Sequence record: PV648359
DNA: 64,000 nt
Reading direction: 5' to 3' (one strand)
Origin: Escherichia phage LF82-1
Of the stretch, positions 31,582 to 31,610 are shown piece after piece; within the stretch, counting starts at the first letter, position 1; each line of letters opens with the position of its first letter. Made by a program: the position numbers and the translations under genes. A model generated the notes under the pieces. The model was not told where the DNA came from. It ran no database searches and saw nothing but the letters and a program-made list of their open reading frames with translations.

Positions 31582-31610
31582 ACCTCCCACGTTTATAGGA
31601 GGTATTTATT
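31582..31610 (-). promoter_or_regulatory. RBS-sequestering hairpin of gene e (ACCTCC…GGAGGT) with late-promoter-like AATAAATA immediately 5'
   Basis: 6-bp inverted repeat whose 3' arm is the Shine-Dalgarno; arrangement recalls the known T4 gene e early/late translational control. Confidence 0.45.

Follow-up and report, generated by a model that had tools for sequence, protein, structure and literature searches.

The DNA analysed here, which we call the window, is a stretch of 64,000 nucleotides from Escherichia phage LF82-1 (PV648359), an RB69-like T-even phage of the genus Mosigvirus. On its minus strand, and in the same order as in T4, nudE is followed by gene e, and between the two lies a short leader in which the ribosome-binding site (RBS) of e, a hairpin and a phage late-promoter box are packed together. 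Around this leader the sequence shares 100% identity with Escherichia phage LF82-2 and 97.7% with RB69. The features are as follows.

31613..32071, minus strand: nudE (e.1), the upstream neighbour of e (phrog_1185 nudix hydrolase)
31603..31610, minus strand: late-promoter box AATAAATA (assigned to -13..-6), a variant of T4 TATAAATA with A at -13
31597, minus strand: predicted late +1 (+/- 2 nt), six bases past the last A of the box
31595..31606, minus strand: hairpin 5' arm AAUACCUCCUAU (MFE folds), in which the anti-SD CCUCC at 31602-31598 occupies late-promoter positions -5..-1
31591..31594, minus strand: hairpin loop AAAC (MFE fold)
31579..31590, minus strand: hairpin 3' arm GUGGGAGGUAUU (sequence and MFE folds), holding the Shine-Dalgarno (SD) sequence
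31090..31578, minus strand: gene e, T4-type lysozyme, 162 aa, start ATG 31578

Read on the minus strand, 31610..31576 is AATAAATACCTCCTATAAACGTGGGAGGTATTATG, which can be parsed as AATAAATA-CCTCC-TATAAACGTG-GGAGG-TATT-ATG. The initial annotation had transcribed this leader correctly except that it counted one A twice, the final A of the box at 31603 being also the first A of its ACCTCC, and it had rightly picked out the GGAGG of the 3' arm (31587-31583) as the SD preceding the ATG. The true start of e is this SD-proximal ATG at 31578, because the encoded protein and T4 lysozyme align from the first residue onwards (83% identical over 161 aa); T4 lysozyme also provides its best PDB matches. A mechanical ORF call had placed the start at GTG 31590, which is an artefact. 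Upstream, the nudE stop codon (TAA, 31615-31613) lies 6 nt ahead of the hairpin, and any transcript crossing it would carry both hairpin arms.

The minimum-free-energy hairpin has 12 pairs, joining 31606-31595 with 31590-31579 at a local energy of -16.3 kcal/mol; nine of the 12 are contiguous Watson-Crick pairs and the three nearest the loop are U-G, A-U and U-G. The initial annotation had proposed an RBS sequestered in a hairpin, and the MFE fold bears this out, although the 6-bp helix it described is half the length of the one that is found. On transcripts arriving from upstream, the SD up to the AUG is thus predicted to be sequestered in a stable helix. The 81-nt fold has z = -2.8 against dinucleotide shuffles, and the RBS opening energy, by which we mean the cost in free energy of freeing positions -13..+2 from all pairing, is predicted to be 17.0-17.2 kcal/mol on read-through RNA, ranking first among the 108 heuristically called genes of the window (median 5.1, sd 3.1). 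A sceptic could argue that the pairing is a chance by-product, with no regulatory role, of a late promoter followed by pyrimidines that happen to complement a strong SD, given that CCUCC and GGAGG are short and that local folds are common in an AT-rich window. Yet when the 15 nt between box and SD were shuffled, none of 1000 shuffles reached 17.2 kcal/mol (shuffles 7.6 +/- 1.9); the CCUCC-GGAGG pairing exceeds chance expectation. Together with that first rank among 108 genes, with a layout that is kept across genera while the stems change, and with the experimental precedent in T4 (both taken up below), this leaves coincidence with hardly any probability at all. General searches told us less: a short inverted-repeat search was uninformative, returning mostly palindromes, and of 4227 Rfam covariance models run against the e leader none matched at gathering score, the lone sub-threshold match having E = 6.3. 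In the window as a whole, the only Rfam matches at gathering score are two adjacent tRNA genes (39906..40057, minus strand).

The late-promoter-like element described by the initial annotation is present; it is not just 5' of the hairpin, as had been stated, but overlaps it, the last four bases of the box being the first four of the 5' arm. T4-type late promoters consist of an 8-bp box at -13..-6 (PMC1524935), and since the box occupies these positions, +1 is expected at 31597; the box is therefore so placed that the predicted start would fall 3' of the anti-SD strand. Among the late promoters of T4 itself, no variant is more frequent than A instead of T at -13, which is seen in 9 of 50 listed (PMC2988020), and in RB69-type phages this position is A or T, with A usual in RB69 and other relatives (PMC1524935). 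A point against the box is that the pentamer following it, CCTCC, is not AT-rich, unlike that of typical late promoters, although the functional e promoter of T4 has CCTTC there. On the strand of e, no other ATAAATA occurs within 7.6 kb upstream of the gene. Over the whole window, both strands included, the heptamer is depleted (18 found against 31.4 +/- 5.5 expected from dinucleotide shuffles, every one of which held at least 18), which makes it likely that those left have a function; such depletion is consistent with selection against stray late promoters. The window also carries the gene for the late sigma factor gp55 (6233..6790, minus strand; phrog_234, 3.7e-68). A near-box, TATAAGTA at 31617-31610, was considered as an alternative late promoter and judged unlikely, having a G inside the conserved core and no conservation in other genera; a start from it would retain the whole 5' arm.

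RNA begun at the predicted +1 lacks CCUCC, so that it should form no hairpin and leave the RBS open. This is what the initial annotation had supposed of a late transcript deprived of the full 5' arm, and the comparison of early with late RNA folding that it proposed as a check agrees: with the late start the opening energy falls from about 17 to 6 kcal/mol, or more exactly to 5.9, close to the window median. Starts 2 nt upstream or 2 nt downstream of 31597 give 6.6 and 5.9 kcal/mol.

The switch at T4 gene e has been textbook T4 biology since 1986, when McPheeters and colleagues reportedly demonstrated by experiment that an RBS-sequestering hairpin with embedded late promoters controls its translation (NAR 14:5813). 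The gene and its position are orthologous in the two phages (nudE, then e), and the leaders match in 35 of 41 aligned columns; the 3' arm with its start codon, GGAGGUAUU-AUG, is identical and the 5' arm nearly so (AAUACCUCC versus AAUACCUUC). In both, a late box covers part of the 5' arm, which puts the predicted +1 just past the anti-SD. There are differences of detail. T4 and its close relatives have two perfect TATAAATA boxes, one over the 5' arm and one in the loop, whereas the window phage has a single A(-13) box, the stretch TATAAACG at 31597-31590 (loop and flanks) being a decayed counterpart of the in-loop TATAAATA of T4; the stem of the window phage is also longer by three loop-proximal pairs, closing on a 4-nt loop. 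In T4, e is one of several genes, together with soc, 49 and I-TevI, whose SD and/or AUG is sequestered in a helix (Uzan & Miller 2010, PMC3014915). The long early e transcripts fold into this hairpin, with a 100-fold drop in lysozyme synthesis, while RNA from either of two late promoters lacks the 5' portion and is well translated, the 5' ends of the late transcripts having been mapped inside the hairpin (PMC3014915, including its Fig. 5 legend). The same review states that the leaders of close relatives are alike and that 'each' has a late promoter in the DNA from which the 5' strand is transcribed (PMC3014915, Figure 5A), and RB69 is absent from its lists of phages without e or without the structure.

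For a wider comparison, e leaders were gathered from GenBank phages and IMG/VR contigs, and 16 distinct ones were analysed, among them representatives of Mosigvirus, Tequatrovirus, Dhakavirus, Gaprivervirus, Karamvirus and Jiaodavirus as well as unclassified IMG/VR contigs. All 16 have ATAAATA, then directly a pyrimidine anti-SD at -5..-1, a loop and the SD, with predicted opening energies of 10-18.7 kcal/mol for early and 2-7.7 kcal/mol for late RNA. The register and sequence of the stem differ among them: the T4, RB69 and Dhakavirus types share the helix AAUACCUCC/GGAGGUAUU, Gaprivervirus has AAUACCCC/GGGGUAUU, which is a U-A to C-G swap, and the Karamvirus and Jiaodavirus types have CUCCUAUC/GAUAGGAG with the 3' flank GGAGGUCCU. 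Within the first of these groups 85% of cells are paired, against 34-61% in slid registers. Covariation in the e helix is modest to weak, with double changes in two pairs, as expected of a helix in which one strand is held constant as the SD. A covariance model trained on 11 e leaders recovered the window's one e leader and every group-I leader; it scored Jiaodavirus weakly, missed the Karamvirus type and also returned palindromic matches on the reverse strand, and because of the missed leaders and the palindromic matches its alignment was left out of the pair counts. A MAFFT alignment puts CTCCTAT-type leaders one base out of register, and their structure was judged from individual folds. More distant e genes, from Aeromonas phages and non-T4-type contigs, are without the layout, in agreement with the published survey (PMC3014915). 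The mirroring of T4 gene e control that the initial annotation had recognised is thus supported by gene, position, leader sequence, SD helix, late box, the layout of the 16 leaders and the review literature alike.

All the elements of the T4 e switch that can be recognised in sequence are present, and in the homologous position, among them nudE as an early gene immediately upstream on the same strand, with no terminator predicted. We consider it very probable that the e leader represents, in the RB69 lineage, the translational switch of T4 gene e. During the early phase of infection, transcripts that sigma-70 polymerase starts upstream would run through nudE into e, and with both arms on the same RNA CCUCC would pair with the SD GGAGG in a stem ending one base before the AUG; the hairpin would then block 30S binding, with the result that no lysozyme is made before virions exist. 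After the onset of replication, the gp55-RNA polymerase would recognise AATAAATA where it overlaps the 5' arm and start about six bases downstream, just past CCUCC, producing a late RNA that cannot form the hairpin, so that the RBS would be open and lysozyme could be made. The T4 switch was established by experiment, whereas its counterpart in the window lineage is known from sequence and predicted folds. The present analysis itself provides the sequence, a predicted fold with its energies, homology with T4 and a conserved layout; it is by analogy with T4 that we expect promoter activity at the box, the late start site and an early translational block in this phage.

For the early half of this scheme, read-through RNA must reach e. 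This is plausible, because in RB69 the predicted early promoters Pe:67959 and Pe:69254 lie upstream of e with no predicted terminator between 59,939 and 71,365 (Nolan 2006), and the window has an early-promoter-like site that could, for example, supply such RNA.

33716..33745, minus strand: early-promoter-like site, GTTTAC, an 18-nt spacer ending in TGT, then TATAGT

The -10 region of this site is flanked by an inverted repeat, ATAGGACT/AGTCCTAT. Whether transcription would pass the e hairpin is a fair question, since the hairpin could instead act mainly as an intrinsic terminator or attenuator that ends early transcription after nudE, with the occlusion of the RBS being incidental. Annotation software lends this idea some substance: in the Mosigvirus ATK48 (KT184310.1, 36827-36863) the same hairpin is annotated as 'putative terminator determined with ARNold', a feature that reaches 11 nt into the coding sequence of e, and TransTerm called the analogous hairpin of RB69 gene 49 (47738-47760) a terminator. 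In addition, the stem-loops associated with promoters in T4-type phages (PeSLs) can be efficient terminators in reporter assays (PMC2839356). Against this, the tail after the e stem, AUGAAUAUAUUUGA, has no U tract (3 U in the first 8 nt), and by its sequence the hairpin would not qualify as a Rho-independent terminator in the sense of a GC-rich stem with an immediate U tract; a consensus terminator scan gave no match at the e hairpin, and TransTerm on RB69 did not call it. T4 early transcripts, moreover, are reported to reach into e with the structure (PMC3014915), and termination alone leaves unexplained why in 16 leaders the anti-SD sits between late box and +1. We therefore think it unlikely that termination is the main role. 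It could nonetheless coexist with the translational switch, and the e hairpin may cause some attenuation of early transcription, which would add to the translational block. Conversely, the stem might be opened briefly on early RNA by ribosomes that finish nudE, whose stop codon is 6 nt away.

A further idea is that the hairpin serves mainly to shield the GGAG of the e SD from the RegB endoribonuclease on early RNA, or else to stabilise the RNA. The ingredients are certainly at hand, with regB in the window (27085..27543), an e SD that reads GGAGG, and a RegB enzyme that cuts GGAG in early mRNAs (PMC3014915). There would, however, be no evident gain from preserving an early e message that cannot be translated, the productive late RNA lacks the hairpin altogether, and blocked 30S binding is the cause given in the literature on T4 (PMC3014915), all of which makes protection from RegB, or stabilisation, a highly improbable main function in comparison with the translational switch.

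That switch has a companion in the window. The initial annotation had pointed to a comparable structure before gene 49, and there is indeed one, of the same design as the e leader, with a late box and a 10-pair SD hairpin.

12968..13007, minus strand: leader of gene 49 (endonuclease VII), downstream of pin
13007-13000, minus strand: late box AATAAATA
13000-12991, minus strand: hairpin 5' arm ACCCUUAUCU, followed by the loop at 12990-12986
12985-12976, minus strand: hairpin 3' arm AGGUAAGGGU, with the SD; ATG at 12970 and predicted late +1 at 12994

Here 13007..12977 is AATAAATACCCTTATCTATTTAAGGTAAGGG, followed by TTTATC-ATG, and the leader as a whole (13007..12968) parses as AATAAATA CCCTTATCT ATTTA AGGTAAGGG TTTATC ATG. 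Opening its RBS is predicted to cost 13.3-13.7 kcal/mol when the RNA comes from upstream versus 2.3 from the predicted late +1, and of the nine window genes with ATAAATA no more than 50 nt upstream, e and 49 are the only ones whose opening energy drops by at least 11 kcal/mol with a late start. The gene and the stem sequence are unrelated to those of e, and the covariation is far richer: across eight genera, one member being an Acinetobacter phage, 98.7% of cells in the 10-pair helix are paired (slid registers 35-54%), four pairs show compensatory changes in 15 cells, and none of 500 shuffles reaches the covariation score. RB69 has a listed late promoter, Pl:47792, at this leader (Nolan 2006). 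The T4 gene 49 leader follows the same logic, early pin read-through RNA carrying the RBS hairpin and a late box lying directly 5' of the anti-RBS arm (Barth et al. 1988, Genetics 120:329), and over the hairpin the leader in the window is identical to the Tequatrovirus one.

Beyond e and 49, the same logic has been described for homing endonuclease genes (Edgell et al. 2010, PMC2988022). The T-even hairpins of I-TevI, soc, segB and mobE likewise give late RNA that is without the 5' strand of an RBS-sequestering helix (PMC2988022), although the genes and sequences are unrelated to e and I-TevI has an extra autorepression operator. The PeSL cassettes (Arbiol et al. 2010, PMC2839356) likewise have a promoter in or over a stem-loop directly before an SD and start codon, and there too, as at e, the stem-loop forms only on RNA from upstream; they differ in having sigma-70-type early promoters, where the e element has a gp55-type late box, and they were read as terminators or recombination sites (PMC2839356). 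More tentatively, one might see the e and 49 hairpins as dual-purpose insulators that both attenuate early transcription, in line with the ARNold and TransTerm calls, and block translation, as late members of a T-even 'promoter buried in an RBS hairpin' design that also exists with early promoters; this is possible, and we would give it a modest minority of our belief.

As a discovery, the element has little to offer, its mechanism having been known since 1986 and its conservation in T4 relatives reviewed in 2010: it is a correct recognition of a T4-type switch and nothing new. Its practical value is in the annotation of RB69-like (Mosigvirus) genomes. Gene e should begin at the SD-proximal ATG in these genomes; in the RB69 RefSeq entry (NC_004928.1, 65570-65835) it begins at a second ATG (MLRNDEG...), 15 nt after the SD-proximal one, although it is the upstream ATG that corresponds to the first residue of T4 lysozyme and the RB69 leader is identical to that of the window. 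The e hairpin should not carry a terminator label, as it does in ATK48, and the predicted late promoter at e could be added to the 31 that an HMM-based study lists for RB69, none of them at this leader, an absence that also tells against the assignment (Nolan 2006). For T4, a multi-omics paper makes no mention of lysozyme.

Several other leaders in the window show related arrangements. Two of them have the same design with an early promoter, its spacer carrying, after the GTTTAC (-35), an anti-SD arm that pairs with an SD-containing 3' arm.

27544..27600, minus strand: regB leader, anti-SD arm UUCUCCUCUAGUUG, RBS opening 15.8 kcal/mol (rank 2 of 108)
30754..30810, minus strand: denV leader, anti-SD arm UUCCUCCAAG, RBS opening 13.9 kcal/mol (rank 3 of 108)

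T4 regB and denV keep both helices with compensatory changes. These two leaders resemble the PeSL cassettes, which were read as terminators or recombination sites rather than as RBS switches (PMC2839356). A weaker, third late box fused to an anti-SD is found at 23949..23980 (minus strand), where TATAAATATCCT pairs with AGGATAT ahead of a 185-aa gene of unknown function (phrog_2143), with opening energies of 8.0 early and 2.6 late; just upstream of it is a strong terminator-like hairpin, AGCCCC..GGGGCUUUUU. Finally, the leader of the lysis inhibition gene rI (24319..24352, minus strand) is preceded by AATAAATA and shows a small opening difference, 9.8 early versus 6.1 kcal/mol late.
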